DNA of 64,000 nucleotides from an uncultured archaeon (GTDB lineage: Archaea; Altiarchaeota; Altiarchaeia; JAFGQM01): NCBI GenBank assembly GCA_964592405.1, contig CAZQBY010000001.1, forward strand, positions 18,459-82,458, written 5' to 3'. The position numbers and the translations under genes are program-made. Within the stretch, counting starts at the first letter, position 1. Each line of letters starts with the position of its first letter. The notes beneath the pieces are model-generated. The model searched no databases. It had not been told where the DNA came from and worked only from the letters and a program-made list of their open reading frames with translations. Shown piece by piece: positions 13,558 to 58,860 of the stretch.

Positions 13558-13573
13558 GATTTAAAAGAGAAGG

Positions 13574-13712
13574 TGGGCCTGATGGGATTTGAACCCATGA
13601 CATCTGGCTTGCTCAGAGCCTTTGGATTCCCGTCGGGAGTCCTCAGCAAGGGTGCGCGCGGCACCCAAGCCCGTATAAGACCAGCGCTCTGACCAAGCTG
13701 AGCTACAGGCCC
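13574..13712 (-). tRNA. tRNA-Ile(TAT) with 64-nt intron at 37/38 (13610-13673)
   Basis: GGGCCTG/CAGGCCC-A acceptor; CTGGT-CT-TAT-A|intron|A-GCCAG; BHB central helix CTTA/TGAG with two 3-nt bulges. Confidence 0.9.
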
Positions 13713-48507: not shown

Positions 48508-48556
48508 GAGCCCCTGGCTGCGTAAGCCCTTTTATATCAAAAAACGCAAACTATAC

Positions 48557-48681
48557 GGGCCCGTAGCCTAGTCAGGATAGGGCGACAGCCTTCTACGGCC
48601 TTTTCTTCATTTGGGGAAGAACGGTTCGCTAAGAGATCCGGAGAAAGCTGTAGATCGCGGGTTCGAATCCCGCCGGGTCCG
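48557..48681 (+). tRNA. tRNA-Arg(TCT) with 50-nt intron (48596-48645)
   Basis: GGGCCCG/CGGGTCC acceptor; ACAGC-CT-TCT-A|intron|A-GCTGT; BHB helix CTTC/GGAG. Confidence 0.93.
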
Positions 48682-48772
48682 TCCTCATTCTTCTTGGCTT
48701 AGCCTCGGCCGAACCCGGCTTATGTCAGGGAGGGTGGCTAAGCGAGGAACTCCTCGAAATCCTGCCGGATCC
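48682..48772 (+). repeat. tRNA-trailing ~90-bp element (Arg copy)
   Basis: Related to Phe and Thr trailers; ends in AATCCTGCCGGATCC (13/15 match to tRNA 3' end). Confidence 0.7.
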
Positions 48773-50844: not shown

Positions 50845-50988
50845 CTATTATCTTACGTCTGCCGACTGAAAAACCGTTTTTACCGTTAAATAAATTATGC
50901 AGCAGGCAGAGTTATTTAACGGGTCAGGTCAAGTTGAAAGACGCTAGATGAAGACTTGACCTTTTTATGTTCTCTTGCTATAATATCC

Positions 50989-51035
50989 CAGTCAGGCCGG
51001 CGAGTCGCTTATGCAAGCATCGCTCGCCCAGACTG
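50989..51035 (+). other. Structured leader hairpin of tRNA-Trp (core shared with tRNA-Thr leader)
   Basis: CAGTC/GACTG, GGCGAG/CTCGCC, GCTT/AAGC nested stems; 50999-51029 is 27/31 identical to 58595-58625. Confidence 0.75.
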
Positions 51036-51079
51036 TAACGGGGTCGTAGGGTAGTCTGGCATCCTCGCAGGCTCCAGAG

Positions 51080-51188
51080 AACCCCTTTTCTTCAGAAGAA
51101 AAGGTGCGCGAGGTTCGCGAAAGCGAACCCGCGCCCAAGTTCACAAAAGTGAACTTCGGGCTTCACCCCCCTAAAAGAACGGGGTGTT
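51080..51188 (+). repeat. Four-hairpin intron-nested element, copy 1
   Basis: Near-identical to 58705-58808. Confidence 0.92.
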
Positions 51189-51208
51189 TAGCATTTTTAA
51201 TTTTCAGG

Positions 51209-51268
51209 AAGAGGACTTTGGAGCACCGAGCCGCAAATCGCGGTGATGACGAAACGCGGGTATACGCT
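51209..51268 (+). ncRNA. Intron-encoded box C/D guide for tRNA-Trp positions 34 and 39
   Basis: Guide CTTTGGAGC + D' CCGA (5th nt pairs C34); C' GTGATGA; guide GCGGGTAT (5th nt pairs C39); terminal boxes degenerate. Confidence 0.8.
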
Positions 51269-51392
51269 TCGGCATGGAGATACCTGCTGACCCGGGTTCA
51301 AATCCCGGCGACCCCATCCTTACTTATGCTAGAGATAGCTCGGATGTGGTCGCCTTACGTTGGAGCCGTCTGCCTGGCATGTCCATCCCAAC

Positions 51393-51408
51393 ATCCCGGC
51401 GACCCCAT
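51393..51408 (+). repeat. Exact 16-bp duplication of tRNA-Trp 3' end
   Basis: ATCCCGGCGACCCCAT at 51302-51317 and 51393-51408. Confidence 0.9.
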
Positions 51409-52515
51409 TCATCCCAATCTAGGCTCGCACACTATATCGTATAGCTGACCCAGCCTTTTGACCATGACATCTAAGGAGTACTCTTTCTCCACCAGCTTCC
51501 TCCCATGTCTGGCAAGCTTCTTCCTCCTCTTCTTGTCCTCGATGAGCGCATCCACCTTCTCCGCCAGACCATTGGCGTCTCTTGGCTCTATCAGGAATTC
51601 GGGATCTATTACATCTTTAGCGATTCCTGTGTTGGTCGCTATACATGGTGTTCCAGAGGCGAGCGCCTCCAGCAGAACGATACCTTGGGTTTCCATCTCC
51701 GATGGCATAACAAACAAGTCAGCAGCTGCAAAAGCCTGCGGAATCAACTCATCTGGCAGATAGCCTGTGAAGATTATATTTGGCATGTCCCTGCACATTT
51801 TCCTAAGCTTCTCCTCGAGCTCTCCTCTGCCGGAAACAACAAAAACGGCATCAGATTTTGATTCTATAGCCGCGCGAAGGAAAGTTTGTGGGTCTTTCTT
51901 GTGCTCCAAACGCCCAGCAAAGAAGACCATCGGCCTGTCTGGTATTCCATAGCGGTCCCTGAATTGCTGGGAATCAATATCCGGGCTGAATTTTTTTATG
52001 TTAACCCCATTGGGTATTATCTCAATATGTCTTCCAAGCTTTCTTGCCTCCAGCTGGGTCTTCACCCATTCTGAGGTTGCAATAACAACATCACATTTTC
52101 TGTACAAATATATCAGATACTGCCATGTCGGCCATGTTAGCAACCTGCCACCTGCAGAGTCCAGGGGTACCAGTGCTCCGAAGATTGCAGCCGGATCAGT
52201 ATGGAAACTGCCTACCAATGGCTTTCCAAGCCTCTTTGAAATTTTTATTCCATAGTAAAACATCCCATAAGGAGTATGATTATGAATCAGGTCAAAGTCC
52301 CTTGCCTCTTTTTCCAGCCAGCCGGTGTTTAAGGCGATTTTATATTCGGGAAACAGAGGGAATGGAATACCTGATACCCCTGTCACGTCTGGATGCTTTA
52401 TTGGACCAAATATCTGGTCATCCCAACCTTTTTTTGTGTGGTGCAACCCATAGAGGATGGTGGCTATGCCGTTATTATGTGGAATATATGTATCCGTGAA
52501 GTTTGCAATTCTCAT
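51409..52515 (-). CDS. GT4 glycosyltransferase
   Basis: FTDTYIP..NG, IPNGV, PSEMETQGIVLLEALASG. Confidence 0.93.
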   Translation of the reverse strand: MRIANFTDTYIPHNNGIATILYGLHHTKKGWDDQIFGPIKHPDVTGVSGIPFPLFPEYKIALNTGWLEKEARDFDLIHNHTPYGMFYYGIKISKRLGKPLVGSFHTDPAAIFGALVPLDSAGGRLLTWPTWQYLIYLYRKCDVVIATSEWVKTQLEARKLGRHIEIIPNGVNIKKFSPDIDSQQFRDRYGIPDRPMVFFAGRLEHKKDPQTFLRAAIESKSDAVFVVSGRGELEEKLRKMCRDMPNIIFTGYLPDELIPQAFAAADLFVMPSEMETQGIVLLEALASGTPCIATNTGIAKDVIDPEFLIEPRDANGLAEKVDALIEDKKRRKKLARHGRKLVEKEYSLDVMVKRLGQLYDIVCEPRLG

Positions 52516-52520
52516 CTTTC

Positions 52521-53900
52521 TTACGCCACCTCATAGATTTGCGAATCCCCAGAGGAGAAGACAACCGTTCCAATCTCAGAAAATTTGTCTGTATCAAAGC
52601 CGTAATTCCAGACATCCCGCGCATCTACAACGACATAATCCACACCATATCTCCCCAATATGTTGCGCGCCTCTTCCGGATCGCTGGTTTTCAGCACATG
52701 ATACATTCTCTCCCATCTGGTGCTATCAGGTATGCATTCCAGAAACAAATCAAACTCCGTTCTTATTGAGGGAGACATTAGCAGTGTATTTATCGCTCCA
52801 GAGATCTCAGGATTTGCAAGCACTGTGCTGTCTCTAATATGATCCCTTATCCAGTAGATAACAGCCAAGTCATCATTCGAGAGGGCAGGCCTGACCATTG
52901 CCACGGCCAAGAAAGACATAACCAGCATCACCACCAACACAATTATAACATACCTCCTCTCAAGCCTTGCTTCAGGCAGTACAAAGCAGAGGCTAAAGCC
53001 AAAGAGCAGCAGTTGGTCATATGGATGCAGTTGTGGGAATATCAGAGAGAGCAGAAACCCCACAACAGCTAATCCCAATACCACCCTCCAAAACAACATA
53101 TAATCATCATTTCTTTTTCTGAGCCAATAAAGCAGGCCAAAGCCTATCAGAGTAACAAATGGGGCCATGATGAGGAGATAGCCCATGCCTGCGCTGGTCA
53201 CAGATGAGACTGCAGTTGACGGATCAAAACACTTACCTGCCCGACTGAATGATACCAACAACCAAGGGGATACCAGTCCGACACCAATGGTTATGATGAG
53301 TGCCGCATAGAGGAGGGAAAGCCTCCTGCCTCTTCCCAGCTTTATAAGGCTGAAGACTGTAATCACAGCCACTATTGTGAGGCTTATGAAATAGTTGAAG
53401 AGTATGCAAGTAGCCAGTATGCCGCCTCCCAGAATGTATCTGCCTCTGAGGAGACAATAGGCTATCAGTGGGAAGAGCAACAGGCCAAATATCTGCGGGC
53501 TGTCATAGGACTGCGCTGTTATTATCGGATTTAGGGCTGTGAAAGCAGCGCCCAGAACTGCAGCCTCTACGCTGCGGTATTTCCTTATCAGAAAGAAGAT
53601 AGGCAGGATAAGAAGTGCACTCGCCAGAGGCAGTATGTATTTTACCAGTTCAATAGCCGGGATTCCTGATATTATACTCGTATAACCCAACAACAGATGA
53701 TATAACGGCGGATACAGATGAGGTCTCCCTCCTGCTGCATAATCCCAAGATGGGACCCAGCCGGTTTCCGCCACAATCTGTCCTATGCGCGCGTGATATA
53801 TCGAATCAAAATTGACCAGAAAATCGTTGGTCAGTGGGGGGTATATCCGGATGCTCAGACTCAATAAAAACAGGCCTATGATAACATATCTAACCTTCAT
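52521..53900 (-). CDS. Multi-pass GT-C-like membrane protein
   Basis: FDSIYH, YPPLYH, ~10 TM, C-terminal YGVDYVV. Confidence 0.75.
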   Translation of the reverse strand: MKVRYVIIGLFLLSLSIRIYPPLTNDFLVNFDSIYHARIGQIVAETGWVPSWDYAAGGRPHLYPPLYHLLLGYTSIISGIPAIELVKYILPLASALLILPIFFLIRKYRSVEAAVLGAAFTALNPIITAQSYDSPQIFGLLLFPLIAYCLLRGRYILGGGILATCILFNYFISLTIVAVITVFSLIKLGRGRRLSLLYAALIITIGVGLVSPWLLVSFSRAGKCFDPSTAVSSVTSAGMGYLLIMAPFVTLIGFGLLYWLRKRNDDYMLFWRVVLGLAVVGFLLSLIFPQLHPYDQLLLFGFSLCFVLPEARLERRYVIIVLVVMLVMSFLAVAMVRPALSNDDLAVIYWIRDHIRDSTVLANPEISGAINTLLMSPSIRTEFDLFLECIPDSTRWERMYHVLKTSDPEEARNILGRYGVDYVVVDARDVWNYGFDTDKFSEIGTVVFSSGDSQIYEVA

Positions 53901-54891
53901 TGAGAACCACCTCATAGACTTCTTTTAACTGCATGCCCACCTTCTCTAGGGAATGCTCCTTCACACTCTCCAGCCCATTCCTGATCAGGCGTTTCCTCAT
54001 GTTGCCATCCTCAATCAGTTGTCTTAGATAATCCTCAAATTCCTCATCAGTTTTCGCTCGTAGGCAGTCTTTTCCATCACGAGTCCAGTCGCGAAAGACA
54101 GGCAGATCGCGTATCAAAACAGGTCGCCCCATAGCCCAAGCCTCCAGTATGACTATGCCCTGCGTCTCTGCAAGCGATGGAAAAAAGAATATGTCTCCTG
54201 CTGAATAGGCTGCTACTATATTATTGACATAACCAGTAAACCTGACGTTATCCGGCTTGCTTTCTAGGGCTTCATCCAGCTCCTTGTTTCTGGCCAGACC
54301 TCCCCTGAAAACATTGCCAAACCATATGAACTGGTTCTCAAAACTCCGTGCCACTTCTATGAACGTTCTGACACCCTTTCGCATGAAGACATGACCCACG
54401 GAGAAGGGAACCATGCCTTCCATCCCGTATCTCTCCCTGTATTCCTGCCTTTCTCTTTTGCTAAACCTGAATCTGTCCAGGTCAACACCATTGCTCACAG
54501 TTGTTATTGACTGTTTCAGCCCGTATTTCTTAAGCTGGTTTTTTGTGTATTCGCTGGGACAAATTATATGATCAGCCTGACCATAAAAGAATTTGAGATA
54601 TCTCTTGAAAACCGGAGCCAGTGTGTTACTCATAACAAAGCTGTTACGGGTATCCTCCTCCAGTGTGTGGGCATGTATGATAACCTTTCTGCCCTTCTCT
54701 TTGGCTAGTTTGGTGTAGAACAGGGATTTTGGAAATATGGTATTTATATGGAGGATATCATAATCATCCAGCGGGTTTGTAGTGTATTCCACCCCGGCCT
54801 TTTCCAATGCCTTTTTTTGTCTCTCCAGTGCTACCCCTATGCCGCTTCTTCTCAGCAGCAGATTGCCCTCAAGATACAGGCACACCCTCAT
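53890..54891 (-). CDS. GT4 glycosyltransferase
   Basis: SGIG, VSNGVD, FFPSLAETQGIVILEAWA. Confidence 0.93.
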   Translation of the reverse strand: MRVCLYLEGNLLLRRSGIGVALERQKKALEKAGVEYTTNPLDDYDILHINTIFPKSLFYTKLAKEKGRKVIIHAHTLEEDTRNSFVMSNTLAPVFKRYLKFFYGQADHIICPSEYTKNQLKKYGLKQSITTVSNGVDLDRFRFSKRERQEYRERYGMEGMVPFSVGHVFMRKGVRTFIEVARSFENQFIWFGNVFRGGLARNKELDEALESKPDNVRFTGYVNNIVAAYSAGDIFFFPSLAETQGIVILEAWAMGRPVLIRDLPVFRDWTRDGKDCLRAKTDEEFEDYLRQLIEDGNMRKRLIRNGLESVKEHSLEKVGMQLKEVYEVVLNEG

Positions 54892-55987
54892 TTTCTAAAT
54901 CCTCATAAATCCTCACAAGCTTTTTGATAGTATTCTCAATACTGTGCTTCCTTGCATGTTTTTTTGAGGACGATTTTAATCTTCTGAGATTCCTGTAGGA
55001 CATCTCTACTTTTGTCTTTAAGTCGCTCAGATCTCCGGGTTTGTAGTGGTAACCATTAACTCCAGCCTCTATGGTTGTCTTTAGAGCCATTGCATCAGCA
55101 CCCACTGCCGGCGTTCCACAGGCGTTTGCCTCTAAAACTACGAGTCCTTCTGTTTCAGCTGTGGAAGGCAATATCAGAAGATCCAGACAGGAATAAAACT
55201 CCGGTAGCCGGTTCCTCGGAAGAAAACCAAGAAAGCGGACGTTTTTCTTTCCCTCCGCAAGTTTCTTGTACTCTTCATGCTGTTTGCCCCCGCCGACTAT
55301 CAGAATTGTTCCGTCAAATTCGTCAGCAAAATTTATTAAATCCTCCAGACGCTTCTCCCAGGAGTGCCTGCCGGCGAATCCGATAATCCTACCGTCTGGA
55401 ATATCATAGTCACTTTTGAACTGGTCCGTTCTCGTCTCTTTGAAGAAGTCAGTGTCTATTCCATTTGAAAATGCTATTGTTTTGGAGATGTATCTGCCAA
55501 GACGCTCCCTGAGCAGATTTATCAGAACAGGGGATGGAGCAGTTATCAGCTGGCATCTCTCAAGAAGCTCCTTCTCATATCGGTAATAAAATACCTTGAG
55601 TGATGCTTCTACCAAGGGGTTGGAGCTTATCTGCCTGATATAGAGGTCGGGGGGAGTATGGTAGGTCAGCACCCGCGGCACCCTCTGCTTCCTAGCCACG
55701 GCCAGCCCGAGAGTTGCCATGGTGACGAAGCCGTGGAGGTGAACCATCTCCAAATTTTTTTCTATCTTCTTGAAGGAGGGCAGGCCTATCCTGTATCCCT
55801 CATAGAAGAAGAACGGAATGGAGGGGAGCGGAATCTCGTTATGCTGGGGTTTGTAACCCTCATCCTTTGGATAATAAAGGAAGACCTCATGACCCAGCTT
55901 CTCCAGCTCCCGCTTCCAGAGGCTGACCGTGTAGGTAACGCCGTTTATCTGCGGAAAATATGTGTCTGTGAAGAAGCCTATTTTCAT
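54869..55987 (-). CDS. GT4 glycosyltransferase
   Basis: FFTDTYFPQINGV, SNGID, PSTAETEGLVVLEANACG. Confidence 0.93.
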   Translation of the reverse strand: MKIGFFTDTYFPQINGVTYTVSLWKRELEKLGHEVFLYYPKDEGYKPQHNEIPLPSIPFFFYEGYRIGLPSFKKIEKNLEMVHLHGFVTMATLGLAVARKQRVPRVLTYHTPPDLYIRQISSNPLVEASLKVFYYRYEKELLERCQLITAPSPVLINLLRERLGRYISKTIAFSNGIDTDFFKETRTDQFKSDYDIPDGRIIGFAGRHSWEKRLEDLINFADEFDGTILIVGGGKQHEEYKKLAEGKKNVRFLGFLPRNRLPEFYSCLDLLILPSTAETEGLVVLEANACGTPAVGADAMALKTTIEAGVNGYHYKPGDLSDLKTKVEMSYRNLRRLKSSSKKHARKHSIENTIKKLVRIYEDLENEGVPVS

Positions 55988-56000
55988 CTTAAAACATCCC

Positions 56001-56990
56001 CTAAATTATCTTTAAGAGAATGTAAAGCAAGGTCCAGAAGAGAGTGTTGTTGATTACTATCACGAGTATCTTTCGCGAGAGCGCCTTCTCGGTCATCGGC
56101 CCCAGCTTGCTTATGATGAGCTTGGCGAAATCCAGTTTGCCCGATTTGGGGACGTGCAACCTGCCGTCTTTCAAAACGTAGGGTCTCTCCTTCTTCTGGC
56201 TCATGTCCTCCGGATTGGTCTTCAGCTTGAGCAGTATGTCATATATGTGGGGCGCGAACAGCCCTAGGGCCAGATACCACTGATCTATGAAGAGGACCAT
56301 GCAGCCGGCGAAGGCACCGAAGAGGAGTGTGCCGCTGTCGCCGGGGAAGATGCGTGCAGGATAGCGGTTGAAATAAAATAATCCTCCTGCGGCCCCAACC
56401 ATTATCAGACCGAGGATTATAAGCGTGTCAGTATAAATGCGGGAGAAGGTAACCATGATTGTCAGACCTGCCAGCACTATCGTGGAGGATCCTGTCTCCC
56501 AGCCGTTGAGTCCGGCAAAGGAGTTGAACAGCGATGCTGTTGCAAGGATAAGGAAGCTCCCCAAGACCATATAAAGATACAACCCTATACCGCATTCGTT
56601 GATAACCGACGGGAGCACCAGATATGTGAAGGGCAGGGTAAAAATGAAGAGAACAATCGCGCGATTGACAACATATTTTGTCCACCTCTCCTCTCTCTTG
56701 AACAGCCGAAAGCCGTCATCAAAAAAGCCTATTGCGGCAAAGCATGTAGTGGTAAACAGAAATACGTATGCCAGCGGATTTATAACCTCAAAATGTACCA
56801 ACAGCAGGACGGGTATCCATATTCCGGGCAGGATGAGTATGCCACCGGATTCGGGAATGCGGGGTTTATCCCCTTTGTTTATATCCACGCCACTGATACC
56901 AAAAGACAGCATCCTGTCCTTCAGCAGCCGGATCAGGATCAGTACCAGCACAAAAGGGACAGCGAATACTAGGGGGTATGTCCACTCCAT
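56001..56990 (-). CDS. MraY/GPT-family polyprenyl-phosphate HexNAc-1-phosphate transferase (AglH-like)
   Basis: IPESGG, GFFDD, NSFAGLNGWE, NRYPARIFPGDSGT. Confidence 0.87.
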   Translation of the reverse strand: MEWTYPLVFAVPFVLVLILIRLLKDRMLSFGISGVDINKGDKPRIPESGGILILPGIWIPVLLLVHFEVINPLAYVFLFTTTCFAAIGFFDDGFRLFKREERWTKYVVNRAIVLFIFTLPFTYLVLPSVINECGIGLYLYMVLGSFLILATASLFNSFAGLNGWETGSSTIVLAGLTIMVTFSRIYTDTLIILGLIMVGAAGGLFYFNRYPARIFPGDSGTLLFGAFAGCMVLFIDQWYLALGLFAPHIYDILLKLKTNPEDMSQKKERPYVLKDGRLHVPKSGKLDFAKLIISKLGPMTEKALSRKILVIVINNTLFWTLLYILLKII

Positions 56991-57024
56991 GGTTTTGCCT
57001 TATGTCATTATACTCTTCCAAAAA

Positions 57025-58167
57025 TCATTTCATAAGCTCCCTCAGGAGTATTGTCGCATAGGTGCCAGGAGGGAGAACAAATCTTACCTTTATGTTAGAA
57101 TCTTCTTTATTAAAACCAAGAATCATGAAGTCGCTGAACTTGGCAAGACTGCTCCGCATTTCCCCCTCCATGGCCATCTCAGGCATGGAGGGAACCCGAA
57201 ACTGTCCTTTGTGGATTTCTTCTCTTTTGAGTATCTCTTCTGTAACGTTATCTAGTGGTGTAGTATAACCAACAAGCGGTAGCTCTTTTGGCATTTCTCC
57301 AGACCTAAGGTATTCGCTTAATGCAAGATTGAATATATACCCCTGATATGCATGGATAAACATTAGTCTCAGCTTCTTCGGAAGAACCCGCAATGCGCCG
57401 ATGTAGTCTGTAGGCGTTTTTGCCAGATGATTCAATACACTTTTCTCAAAGCCCAGATAGTTGGGGAACTCTTCAAAGGCTTTCTTAAAGTCTCCTGTTT
57501 CCCTCAGCCTTTCCCTGACTGTGGTGGCTTCCTCCGGCTCGTTGCCAGTATCACAGAGAAATGACATGACAGCCTCCTTGAACTCGCCCCCGAGTATATG
57601 CCGGCCTACAAGATGGTTGTTGAGCCGCAGACCAAAGCGTTGCGTGCCGAAGAAGTTGGGCATCTTTCCATCCAGTTGCCTGATGGTTTTCTTTACAAGC
57701 TTGTCAGCATTTTTTGCAACATCGTGGATGATGACCGTAAACCGGTTTCCCTTAAGCATCCCAAGATTGACCGGTCCATCCGAAACGGAAAAGTCGCGCA
57801 GGATTATGTCCCTAATGTGCACTCCTTCTAACCTCTCTTTCGGCACTTTCCATATGGAAACCCTCTGTGCACTGACTGACCGGCGGTCTTTCGTCCCGGC
57901 AAATTTCAGTCGTTTGTGGGAGACTCCGCATGCGCGTGCAATGGCCTTAACTGCACGCATGGTGTCCCAGTTGGTCTTCTCCAGCGTGAAGTGGGTGTAA
58001 TCTCCCTGAGTGTCCTTAAAGCACTGGTTTTTACCCACCTCCAGAATAACTCCCCCAGGGGTTATCTCCTCAACAATAAAATCTCTGGGCTCCCTCTTTA
58101 AGGTCCCGCCTATGCCCTTGGTTTTTGATAAATATGCGAGCAGTCCTACCCTCTCATCAGTGGACAT
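57025..58167 (-). CDS. truD: tRNA pseudouridine(13) synthase
   Basis: DFIVEE, AGTKDR, GNRF, NFFGTQRFG, HAYQ, GTYAT. Confidence 0.95.
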   Translation of the reverse strand: MSTDERVGLLAYLSKTKGIGGTLKREPRDFIVEEITPGGVILEVGKNQCFKDTQGDYTHFTLEKTNWDTMRAVKAIARACGVSHKRLKFAGTKDRRSVSAQRVSIWKVPKERLEGVHIRDIILRDFSVSDGPVNLGMLKGNRFTVIIHDVAKNADKLVKKTIRQLDGKMPNFFGTQRFGLRLNNHLVGRHILGGEFKEAVMSFLCDTGNEPEEATTVRERLRETGDFKKAFEEFPNYLGFEKSVLNHLAKTPTDYIGALRVLPKKLRLMFIHAYQGYIFNLALSEYLRSGEMPKELPLVGYTTPLDNVTEEILKREEIHKGQFRVPSMPEMAMEGEMRSSLAKFSDFMILGFNKEDSNIKVRFVLPPGTYATILLRELMK

Positions 58168-58405
58168 CTCTGGTATCTGGGTTTCTGAGATTGATATAGA
58201 TGCCCTTCTTCAGACACTCCTTACAGAAGTATTGATTATCGCAATCAATAAGGATTGCTTCATCCCCTGATGTAACCTGCTCTATGATTGCCCTCACATA
58301 GCTGCTCCCCTTGCCGAGAACCCTTCCACAATTGGAGCAGTATTCCTTTATCTCTGTCAGGCTTTCGGGCAGCTGGGCCATTTCCGATTTATTTAGAGAG
58401 GGCAT
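58157..58405 (-). CDS. Small zinc-binding hypothetical protein
   Basis: CSNC...CKEC; overlaps truD start. Confidence 0.65.
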   Translation of the reverse strand: MPSLNKSEMAQLPESLTEIKEYCSNCGRVLGKGSSYVRAIIEQVTSGDEAILIDCDNQYFCKECLKKGIYINLRNPDTRDVH

Positions 58406-58517
58406 ATTAAAAAACCTTTCTTTATAAACAAGGATGTTAAAGAGGAAAAGAATAAAAACCTCTTTAATGCGCCTTAAAAAGCTTTGCTATTCCGTTACTT
58501 TTCACCGGTGACAAGGA

Positions 58518-58572
58518 GTTACACTACACTTAAATGCTTTTTCGTTTTCGCACTCTTTTTATGTAGTGTAAC
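58518..58572. promoter_or_regulatory. Inverted pair of GTTACACTACA motifs bracketing TATA-like CTTTTTAT of tRNA-Thr
   Basis: 58518-58528 and reverse complement 58562-58572. Confidence 0.6.
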
Positions 58573-58665
58573 ACAAAATATCCCGCTTCAGATAGGCAAG
58601 TTGCTTATCCAAGCACCGCTCGCCCGAGTTAAGCGCGAGCATAATCCAAGCGAAATGAGCCGCTT

Positions 58666-58860
58666 GCCTCCGTAGCTCAGTCTGGTAGAGCGCGTCCTTG
58701 GTAGAGCCCCTTTCTTCAAAAGAAAGGTGCGCGAGGTTCGCGAAAGCGAACCTGCGCCCAAGTTCACAAAAGTGAACTTCGGGCTTCACCCCCAAAGAAC
58801 GGGGTGCTGTGGAAACAGCCAATGAGGACGAGGTCGCGGGTTCGGATCCCGCCGGGGGCT
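58666..58860 (+). tRNA. tRNA-Thr(GGT) with 121-nt intron (58704-58824)
   Basis: GCCTCCG/CGGGGGC-T acceptor; CGTCC-TT-GGT-A|intron|A-GGACG; helix TTGG/CCAA; T-loop TTCGGAT. Confidence 0.88.
58705..58808 (+). repeat. Four-hairpin intron-nested element, copy 2
   Basis: Near-identical to 51080-51188. Confidence 0.92.

Follow-up and report, generated by a model that had tools for sequence, protein, structure and literature searches.

The window analysed here is a stretch of 64,000 nucleotides (nt) from an uncultured archaeon of the Altiarchaeota (contig CAZQBY010000001.1, positions 18,459 to 82,458), and it carries a block of about 105 nt that recurs almost unchanged in the introns of two different tRNA genes, tRNA-Trp(CCA) and tRNA-Thr(GGU). 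This block is probably a nested composite of two lineage-specific dispersed DNA repeats, which sit within ordinary bulge-helix-bulge (BHB) tRNA introns and are tolerated thanks to splicing. The outer repeat, the scaffold EA, comprises hairpins 1 and 4 of the block, and the inner repeat, a 54-nt module, comprises hairpins 2 and 3. An earlier first-pass annotation of the window had described one four-hairpin element; we found two independent repeat families instead. The reading draws on the observed anatomy of the block, the dispersal and covariation of its parts, the presence and absence of the module in orthologous introns, and three insertion points of the module within EA.

The shared block in the tRNA-Trp and tRNA-Thr introns

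The window's own genome (G000) is 1.13 Mb in size, in 22 contigs, and 87% complete. The two genes and their parts, called with ARAGORN -i, are as follows.

51040 to 51316, + strand: tRNA-Trp(CCA) gene (genome position C1:69498-69774, offset 18458)
51040 to 51077, + strand: Trp exon 1
51078 to 51281, + strand: Trp intron, 204 nt
51282 to 51316, + strand: Trp exon 2
58666 to 58860, + strand: tRNA-Thr(GGU) gene
58666 to 58703, + strand: Thr exon 1
58704 to 58824, + strand: Thr intron, 121 nt
58825 to 58860, + strand: Thr exon 2

Neither gene was called by the default ARAGORN scan or by the Rfam tRNA model at gathering score, because their introns are long. Both introns lie at the canonical 37/38 position (51077|51078 in Trp and 58703|58704 in Thr; ARAGORN -i and reading). 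By reading, the central helix in Trp pairs CTCC (positions 32-35) with GGAG at 51276-51279, with bulges AG|A and AT|A, and in Thr it pairs TTGG (32-35) with CCAA at 58819-58822, with bulges TA|G and TG|A. Both introns can form the canonical archaeal BHB motif of two 3-nt bulges and a 4-bp helix.

A BLAST search of the genome with positions 51078-51190 matched the Thr copy of the block (58705-58808) to the Trp copy (51080-51188) with 93% identity over query positions 1-109 (E 2.2e-38), and a third copy with 88% identity was found in the tRNA-Ala(UGC) intron on contig C13. In pairwise alignment, the near-identity is limited to the block; in the exons, alignment is confined to generic tRNA positions, and the 3' remainders of the introns (95 nt in Trp and 17 nt in Thr) do not align to each other. 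The first-pass annotation had reported these two blocks amid unrelated exons and intron remainders and had looked to a genome BLAST for further copies, and it was right on both counts. The same search revealed a short form in the tRNA-Arg(UCG) intron, where hairpin 1 is joined straight to hairpin 4, without hairpins 2 and 3.

RNAfold folds both copies as four adjacent hairpins, as had been proposed, with a minimum free energy of -54.5 kcal/mol for Trp (z -7.3) and -56.2 kcal/mol for Thr (z -7.9); for either copy, none of 200 shuffles reached this stability. The differences between the copies preserve structure in the way the annotation had listed them. The C/T difference at 51132/58755 exchanges a G-C pair with a bulged A for an A-U pair with a bulged G, hairpin 1 of Thr has one T-A pair fewer than that of Trp, and the loops also differ. 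That both copies follow an AG is true as well, but the two AGs are not equivalent: in Trp they are intron nt 1-2, and in Thr they are A37 and intron nt 1.

Short-read contigs break at this repeat, and its collapse during assembly, or a chimeric join that placed it in both tRNA genes, could mimic such a pattern. Misassembly of this kind, which the first-pass annotation had warned of, is extremely improbable. Metagenome contig L040, an independent assembly, has an identical Trp gene including the block. Contigs of metagenome run X2, from another study, match 58456-58793 and 51141-51563 without differences, thus spanning Thr exon 1 through the module, and related long forms occur in a genome of the same genus (G002) and on contig L039.

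Rfam searches at gathering score returned only tRNA, and on the Trp gene nothing relevant was found at E <= 10. Viral contigs had no matches (0) for the module pattern or the EA core pattern.

Presence, absence and insertion points of the module

Two models were searched against 61 genomes of the phylum (the class-level set is the same 61). R1 is a covariance model of the 54-nt module built from 10 copies; its matches were counted at E <= 0.01, and the counts include both strands (the module is a pseudo-palindrome). R2 is a model of the short-form EA, about 50 nt long. With these models, the block divides as follows, S1 to S3 being three sequence tracts of EA.

51080 to 51106, + strand: EA first half in Trp, hairpin 1 (S1 TTTTCTTC, purine arm S2) and linker TG; from the fold, the tract parse and an R2 match at C1:69538-69575
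51107 to 51160, + strand: module in Trp, 54 nt; R1 82.7 bits, E 1.2e-17; fold z -6.9
51161 to 51186, + strand: EA second half in Trp, CTTCACCCCCC, S3 AAAAGAA as the hairpin 4 loop, GGGGTG
58705 to 58729, + strand: EA first half in Thr, hairpin 1 (S1 TTTCTTC) and linker TG; from the fold and R2
58730 to 58783, + strand: module in Thr, 54 nt; R1 83.5 bits, E 7.5e-18
58784 to 58806, + strand: EA second half in Thr, CTTCACCCCC, S3 AAAGAA, GGGGTG

The Trp intron has the module in G000 and on contigs L039 and L040, and it is without the module in G002 and G007. The Trp introns of these two relatives are otherwise collinear with that of G000, and the missing stretch is exactly 51107-51160. The His intron has the module in G002 and is without it in G000, and the Thr(GGU) intron has it in G000 and is without it on contig L039 of a relative. 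Insertion into a pre-existing intron, which had been suspected for Trp, is borne out by G002 and G007, and these are also the relatives with empty introns that had been hoped for. A possible empty Thr allele in the population was considered, from a joint at 58728->58783 that skips 54 nt in runs X1 and X2. It was rejected as cross-mapping from the short-form Arg(UCG) intron, because the loose ends at this joint carry Arg exons.

There are three insertion positions of the module within EA. The linker point TG|CTTCAC is used in G000 (Trp, Thr and Ala), in the His intron of G002, and in the Trp intron of L039. The module lies within the hairpin-1 loop in L033/L034 (tRNA-Ser(GGA) intron), L035/L036 and L053. 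In the Thr(GGU) intron of G001, a different module copy with other stem sequences is placed inside hairpin 4. In a different family, a tRNA-Lys trailer (L016) also has a weak module-like double hairpin at TG|CTTCAC (16.5 bits, E 0.011).

The three intronic modules of G000 differ at 1 of 54 positions, and there is more difference among their flanks, hairpins 1 and 4. G000 and G007 have the same hairpin 1 in the Trp intron; therefore, the flanks follow orthology and the module does not. Near-identical modules within diverged flanks indicate recent copying of one master module at the DNA level. A module resembling repetitive extragenic palindromes (REP) and bacterial interspersed mosaic elements (BIME), that is, a 54-nt inverted pair, would have landed in loop or linker positions of EA. 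One master module would then have been copied recently into the TG|CTTCAC linker of the Trp, Thr and Ala introns and of the His intron of the sister species, either through site-preferring insertion or through ectopic gene conversion from one EA copy to another. The likeness of the Trp, Thr and Ala copies would come from homologous scaffolds and from the recent spread of one module copy. Such copies may persist where splicing removes them and mature tRNAs are unaffected, and the four-hairpin RNA as such would then have no dedicated function. The suggestion of the first-pass annotation that a non-coding block, spliced out, has spread at the DNA level is supported.

Two other histories bear on these observations. 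All EA-type introns may once have had the module, with short forms arising by repeated precise deletion. Hairpin pairs are deletion-prone, and the long and short forms differ by exactly 54 nt. This ancestral long form is nevertheless unlikely, given that 1 of 54 positions varies among the modules of three paralogous introns in G000, whose flanks have diverged, that different module copies occupy three EA positions, and that the module occurs in 12 of 61 genomes and is rare outside family f1, compared with 49 of 61 genomes for EA. Still less likely is transposition of whole introns between tRNA genes, of the kind proposed for Thermoproteales. Different tRNAs do have more than 70% of intron sequence identical, which fits it, and the tRNA-Glu intron, with linker type B in G000 and type A in G001, indicates turnover of intron content. 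However, only the 105-nt block is common, the Trp, Thr and Ala introns have unrelated 3' parts, Trp keeps its box C/D-like part, and the flanks follow orthology.

Dispersal and covariation of the module

Hairpin 3 corresponds in type to the reverse complement of hairpin 2. The module thus consists of a single kind of hairpin in two opposite orientations, and arrays of 4-6 hairpins of this kind occur. Its conserved base is CNC-G-ARG...CYT-GNG. The junction pattern of hairpins 2 and 3 was found in 3 of the 61 class genomes and 8 metagenome contigs, and a genome-wide scan for this pattern returned two archaeal records only, plus one chance match in Fimbriiglobus. R1 matches were found in 12 of 61 genomes, with 9 in G000, 34 in G002, 12 in G001, 40 in G007, 41 in G003 and 21 in G006; five of seven family relatives have 12-41 matches per genome.

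The module is not confined to introns. G000 has six module loci: three introns, two sites downstream of tRNA genes (tRNA-Pro and tRNA-Glu), and one intergenic site. The 34 module loci that were inspected include tRNA trailers (for example, that of tRNA-Val in L037), intergenic DNA, and a position just 5' of a Shine-Dalgarno-like AAGGAG and ATG (L038). One copy in G006 (L045:925-978) is part of a coding sequence: it contributes 18 in-frame codons to a ribosomal protein S6e gene (Pfam PF01092, E 5.4e-34), within the stretch for the low-complexity C-terminal tail.

Paired positions in the module hold in 98.4% of cells over 76 distinct rows, and all 20 pairs change on both sides, so the strong covariation that had been anticipated is present. 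The covariation score is 0.602, compared with 0.166 for shuffled alignments (0 of 500 shuffles reach the observed value) and at most 0.132 when partners are slid; the alignment was fitted to R1 and contains both strands and some overlapping loci, so that its independence is overstated. Judged from this alignment, the module is kept as structure rather than sequence. By reading, it has no tandem G.A pairs suggesting a kink-turn.

A Y1 (IS200/IS605-type) transposase fragment with one in-frame TAG lies at a contig start of the genome (G000:C1:66-212). A link of the module to REP-associated tyrosine transposases (RAYT) or to IS200/IS605 elements was considered and rejected. The hairpin beside the G000 fragment is unrelated, and R1 has no significant match at this locus (L041). 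None of six Y1_Tnp loci in relatives is flanked by the module; the best R1 values over all these loci were E 0.084 and 0.85. Co-occurrence is weak: Y1_Tnp is present in 8 of 12 module-bearing genomes and in 13 of 49 genomes without the module, and these genomes are related and incomplete.

The scaffold EA

EA is more widespread than the module. R2 matches were found in 49 of 61 genomes of the phylum and in 13 of 13 high-quality genomes, always on a single strand, and individual genomes have as many as 39 copies. Its linker has the form TG-YTTCAY-CCCC or is of one of two other types. A polypyrimidine/polypurine hairpin of the hairpin-1 type opens 10 of the 16 tRNA introns of G000, and R2 (E <= 1) matches nine of these 10. 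In many short canonical tRNA introns, the first 70-80% of the length is EA; it accounts for about three quarters of the 69-nt Arg(UCG) intron. Rfam searches at E <= 1 with three uninterrupted EA loci returned nothing relevant.

Copies of EA outside introns were reached through BLAST matches to hairpin 1 in other families. Contexts were read for the 37 best-scoring copies, approximately one per genome. Sixteen of these open a canonical intron in sense orientation, and the tRNAs concerned are of many kinds. Four are antisense in or beside introns, five come directly after a tRNA 3' end, five come after a truncated 5' piece of a tRNA whose intact copy lies some 100 nt further downstream, and seven are without a nearby tRNA. 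A second sample covered 20 regions in three genomes (G029, G036 and G008). In the complete genome G029, five of six sampled EA copies start at a stop codon or immediately past one, with a TATA-like box of the next gene after them, and in G008 the sampled copies are mostly in tRNA introns. Thus, the expectation of the first-pass annotation that copies would be confined to introns did not hold for either repeat, as both also occur in trailers, in intergenic DNA or after stop codons. Its concern that copies might lie randomly in intergenic DNA applies in part to the relatives, whereas in G000 five of six module loci and 11 of 11 EA matches are linked to tRNA genes.

Further details were seen in the second sample. 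In G029 (L107-L112), the TATA-like TTTATAAGACAA lies about 10 nt or less past EA, and a start codon follows about 20 nt later. In G036 (L115-L119), several EA copies have beside them a duplicate of the 5' part of the protein gene that follows.

A dedicated structured RNA is the likeliest of the rivals, although we consider it improbable. The whole block, or EA with an optional two-hairpin domain, would be released and perhaps circularised by splicing; it might serve as a protein-binding or stabilising domain, with the module as a variable domain at a permissive junction. The very stable folds (z -7.3 and -7.9), the strong covariation of the module, the recurrence of the TG|CTTCAC point (three times in G000, in G002 His, in L039 Trp, and weakly in the L016 tRNA-Lys trailer), and the tRNA linkage of all scaffold matches in G000 agree with such a role. 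On the other hand, within one genus orthologous introns function with or without the module. The module also stands alone in intergenic DNA, coding sequence and hairpin arrays, with matches on both strands, and EA occurs antisense in introns. Stems vary freely and only the hairpin shape is kept, as in REP-type DNA repeats.

Several points weigh against the composite of two DNA repeats that we prefer. Near-identical module copies occupy one position in four different introns, which also fits a selected RNA domain or a site-specific mechanism, and the block as a whole may have a role at the RNA level. Five of six module loci in G000 are tRNA-linked, and the independence of the module alignment is overstated. 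No mobilising enzyme was found for the module in the Y1_Tnp loci described above, and filled and empty sites compared by reading have no direct repeat of at least 2 nt that would indicate a target-site duplication. The relatives are incomplete metagenome-assembled genomes, and the context counts rest on best-scoring copies.

Three-strand covariation in EA

EA has three tracts that change together. S1 is the pyrimidine arm of hairpin 1, S2 is its purine partner, and S3 is a purine tract past the conserved linker; S3 is the mirror of S2 and the parallel complement of S1. Co-changing tracts include T3CT3CT3/A3GA3GA3, T5CT3/A5GA3 and TTTCTCC/AAAGAGG. Of 58 distinct sequences, which represent 19 stem variants, 52 have an S3 that mirrors S2 along the full stem, and 54 do so if a deviation of 1 nt is allowed; one of the 58 rows (L016) is a mis-parsed long form whose true S3 does match. 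Counted by type, there are 37 full mirror matches among 43; 10,000 shuffles averaged 7.9 such matches and never exceeded 19. Of the stem types, 35 are asymmetric, and in these S3 is a mirror 29 times and a direct repeat once. S3 in the window agrees with the mirror of S2 at 7 of 8 positions in Trp and 6 of 6 in Thr. The other linker types of G000 (Glu and Leu-UAA, and Gly-UCC) keep the mirror relation by reading.

The geometry of EA looks like that of the intrastrand triplex type, with pyrimidine-purine-purine (Y-R-R) tracts on this strand and Y-Y-R tracts on the other. As triplex-prone, non-B DNA, EA may provoke local duplication and rearrangement, and its instability could be the reason that tRNA and gene fragments and tandem units lie beside it. 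A tentative and rather doubtful extension is that EA is a naturally selected intrastrand triplex (Y-R-R in the sense strand, canonical Y-Y-R with T.A-T / C+.G-C in the other) that marks the ends of RNA units across Altiarchaeota (stop codons, tRNA 3' ends and tRNA 5' exons), stalls polymerases, provokes copying, and seeds new tRNA introns and tRNA and gene fragments. As triplex-prone, non-B DNA, EA may provoke local duplication and rearrangement, and its instability could be the reason that tRNA and gene fragments and tandem units lie beside it.

Against a triplex, the mirror rule is broken in 2 of 58 EA copies, one of which is a direct repeat, and in family f1 S3 is enclosed as the hairpin 4 loop, which is sterically awkward for a full triplex. 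Triplex formation is deduced from the sequence of the tracts. Purine-motif triplexes are poor in RNA.

If EA does act in this way, most short canonical introns of Altiarchaeota would be EA insertions followed by a short tRNA-specific tail, which would explain concretely, at the DNA level, how archaeal tRNA introns can arrive. This question is still called open in a 2026 preprint on Asgard archaea.

Other features of the tRNA genes and their introns

ARAGORN -i called 33 tRNA genes in G000, 16 of them with introns; several were misnamed, and anticodons were re-read. Beside the block, the Trp intron carries a box C/D-like part, located by reading.

51216 to 51290, + strand: box C/D-like part of the Trp intron
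51216 to 51224, + strand: guide CTTTGGAGC
51226 to 51229, + strand: D'-like box CCGA
51243 to 51249, + strand: C box GTGATGA
51287 to 51290, + strand: D box CTGA, inside exon 2
48556 to 48684, + strand: further intron-bearing tRNA, tRNA-Arg(UCU) by reading (Ser according to ARAGORN)

By reading, the guide is complementary to tRNA-Trp positions 31-37 and intron nt 1-2, and this pairing sets C34 at the fifth nt upstream of the CCGA D'-like box. On this reading, the first-pass annotation was correct that the guide target includes the AG before the block. Rfam C/D families match the Trp gene below threshold only (sR23, 16.1 bits compared with 45). The intron of the tRNA at 48556-48684 opens with a degenerate hairpin-1-like sequence.

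An AT-rich, TATA-like stretch, TTTAGCATTTTTAATTTTCAGG, lies at 51187-51205, between EA and the C/D-like part of the Trp intron, and is kept in G007. Transcription of the guide RNA might start from it, as from an internal promoter. The idea of a split gene, in which EA ends a 5' half and an intronic promoter drives a 3' half, was rejected for Thr, where only 18 nt remain past EA; it may apply to Trp, where the TATA-like stretch comes after EA. Upstream of both tRNAs (50985-51030 and 58585-58630) is a similar motif, GCTTAT-N-CAAGCA-Y-CGCTCGCCC, within an inverted repeat; its distance to the mature 5' end is about 27 nt in Trp and about 65 nt in Thr. Elsewhere in the window (13572-13712, - strand), a gene that ARAGORN named Ala(agc) is tRNA-Ile with anticodon UAU by reading, and its 64-nt intron is without EA.

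Tandem units are found 5' of intact tRNAs at G000:C3:108140-108460, at G000:C5:41680-41930, and in G003 (L023). The unit upstream of tRNA-Arg(GCG) consists of a short spacer, a 19-nt tRNA 5' fragment and an EA-like element, and those upstream of tRNA-Ser(GGA) repeat the tRNA 5' end beside other hairpins. Candidate explanations for these units are non-canonical D-loop introns, decoys or duplication scars.

The 3' ends of tRNAs also recur. Downstream of 12 of the 33 G000 tRNA genes, the last 15 nt or so (the T loop end and the 3' strands of the T stem and acceptor stem) are repeated one to three times, mostly at 70-90 nt spacing. Such repeats occur in the window at 51302-51316 and 51393-51407, and on contigs C3, C4, C5, C6, C10, C13, C14, C17 and C18. 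Each unit has a stretch complementary to the tRNA 3' end, a CCTTATGYC motif that resembles the TATA-like box 5' of tRNA-Trp, and a hairpin. Some of these arrays hold runs of 100 N. The module is inserted in 3'-end repeat units downstream of tRNA-Pro in G000 and in L039, L059 and L022.

Implications

The bulk of many tRNA introns in this lineage is a recognisable dispersed repeat, which is also found outside introns, in both orientations, and beside duplicated gene fragments. Among members of one genus, a second repeat comes and goes within it. Together they provide filled and empty alleles, defined insertion points, and a directly testable candidate DNA structure, the intrastrand triplex, and they bear on the rise and spread of archaeal tRNA introns. 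They also call for caution, as what looks like a conserved structured RNA in an intron can be stacked DNA-level repeats, and covariation by itself is no proof of RNA function.

Comparison with known systems

Families of tRNA introns common to different tRNA genes have been described in Thermoproteales (Fujishima et al., 2010, as cited in PMC4090602). As in that account, similar introns occur here across tRNA identities and a DNA-level process is inferred. Unlike those families, the similarity here is limited to an internal block of about 105 nt and does not extend to more than 70% over the whole intron length, all copies are at position 37/38, and the lineage is Altiarchaeota; moreover, the block consists of two repeats that are also found outside introns.

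REP-like palindromes occur across bacteria and archaea, according to the RepRanger survey (PMC12306157). Like REP and BIME elements, the module is a short imperfect palindrome that is dispersed, mostly extragenic, arranged in inverted pairs and arrays, and subject to compensatory change in its stems, with a copy number that varies widely among close relatives. REP elements have a conserved GT[AG]G head, whereas the module has no GTAG-type head and its base is CNC-G-ARG. It also differs in having no flanking Y1/RAYT gene at the loci searched, and in occurring in tRNA introns and once in frame in a gene. The first-pass annotation had raised a match to Rfam or to miniature inverted-repeat transposable elements (MITE); no Rfam family matched, and by reading the module does not combine terminal inverted repeats with a target-site duplication, as MITEs do.

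Bacterial intrastrand triplex repeats (BoxC, PIT and TMECO) are conserved, dispersed and intergenic, and in vitro they are a block to DNA polymerase. Rearrangement is more frequent around them than in control intergenic regions, and the E. coli motifs showed no terminator or promoter activity (Holder et al., 2015; PMC4666352). Like EA, they have three tracts on one strand (stemA, loop, stemB, loop, stemC), and their third tract is able to bind as a third strand; in EA, the third tract mirrors the second at the level of sequence. EA differs from them in being archaeal, in having its own sequence and a conserved linker, in its strong tRNA linkage, and in forming the 5' part of spliced introns. 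The literature on archaeal tRNA introns, REP and triplex repeats, in the portions available to us, describes neither element for Altiarchaeota.

A box C/D guide nested in the archaeal tRNA-Trp intron is known (Clouet d'Orval, 2001; Singh, 2004; both as cited in PMC4090602). By reading, the Trp intron of the window appears to have a similar arrangement of C box, D box and guide, with C34 five nt ahead of a D'-like box. Unlike the known type, a second guide target is not obvious here, because position 39 is C, and the intron is much longer, because EA and the module lie 5' of the guide.

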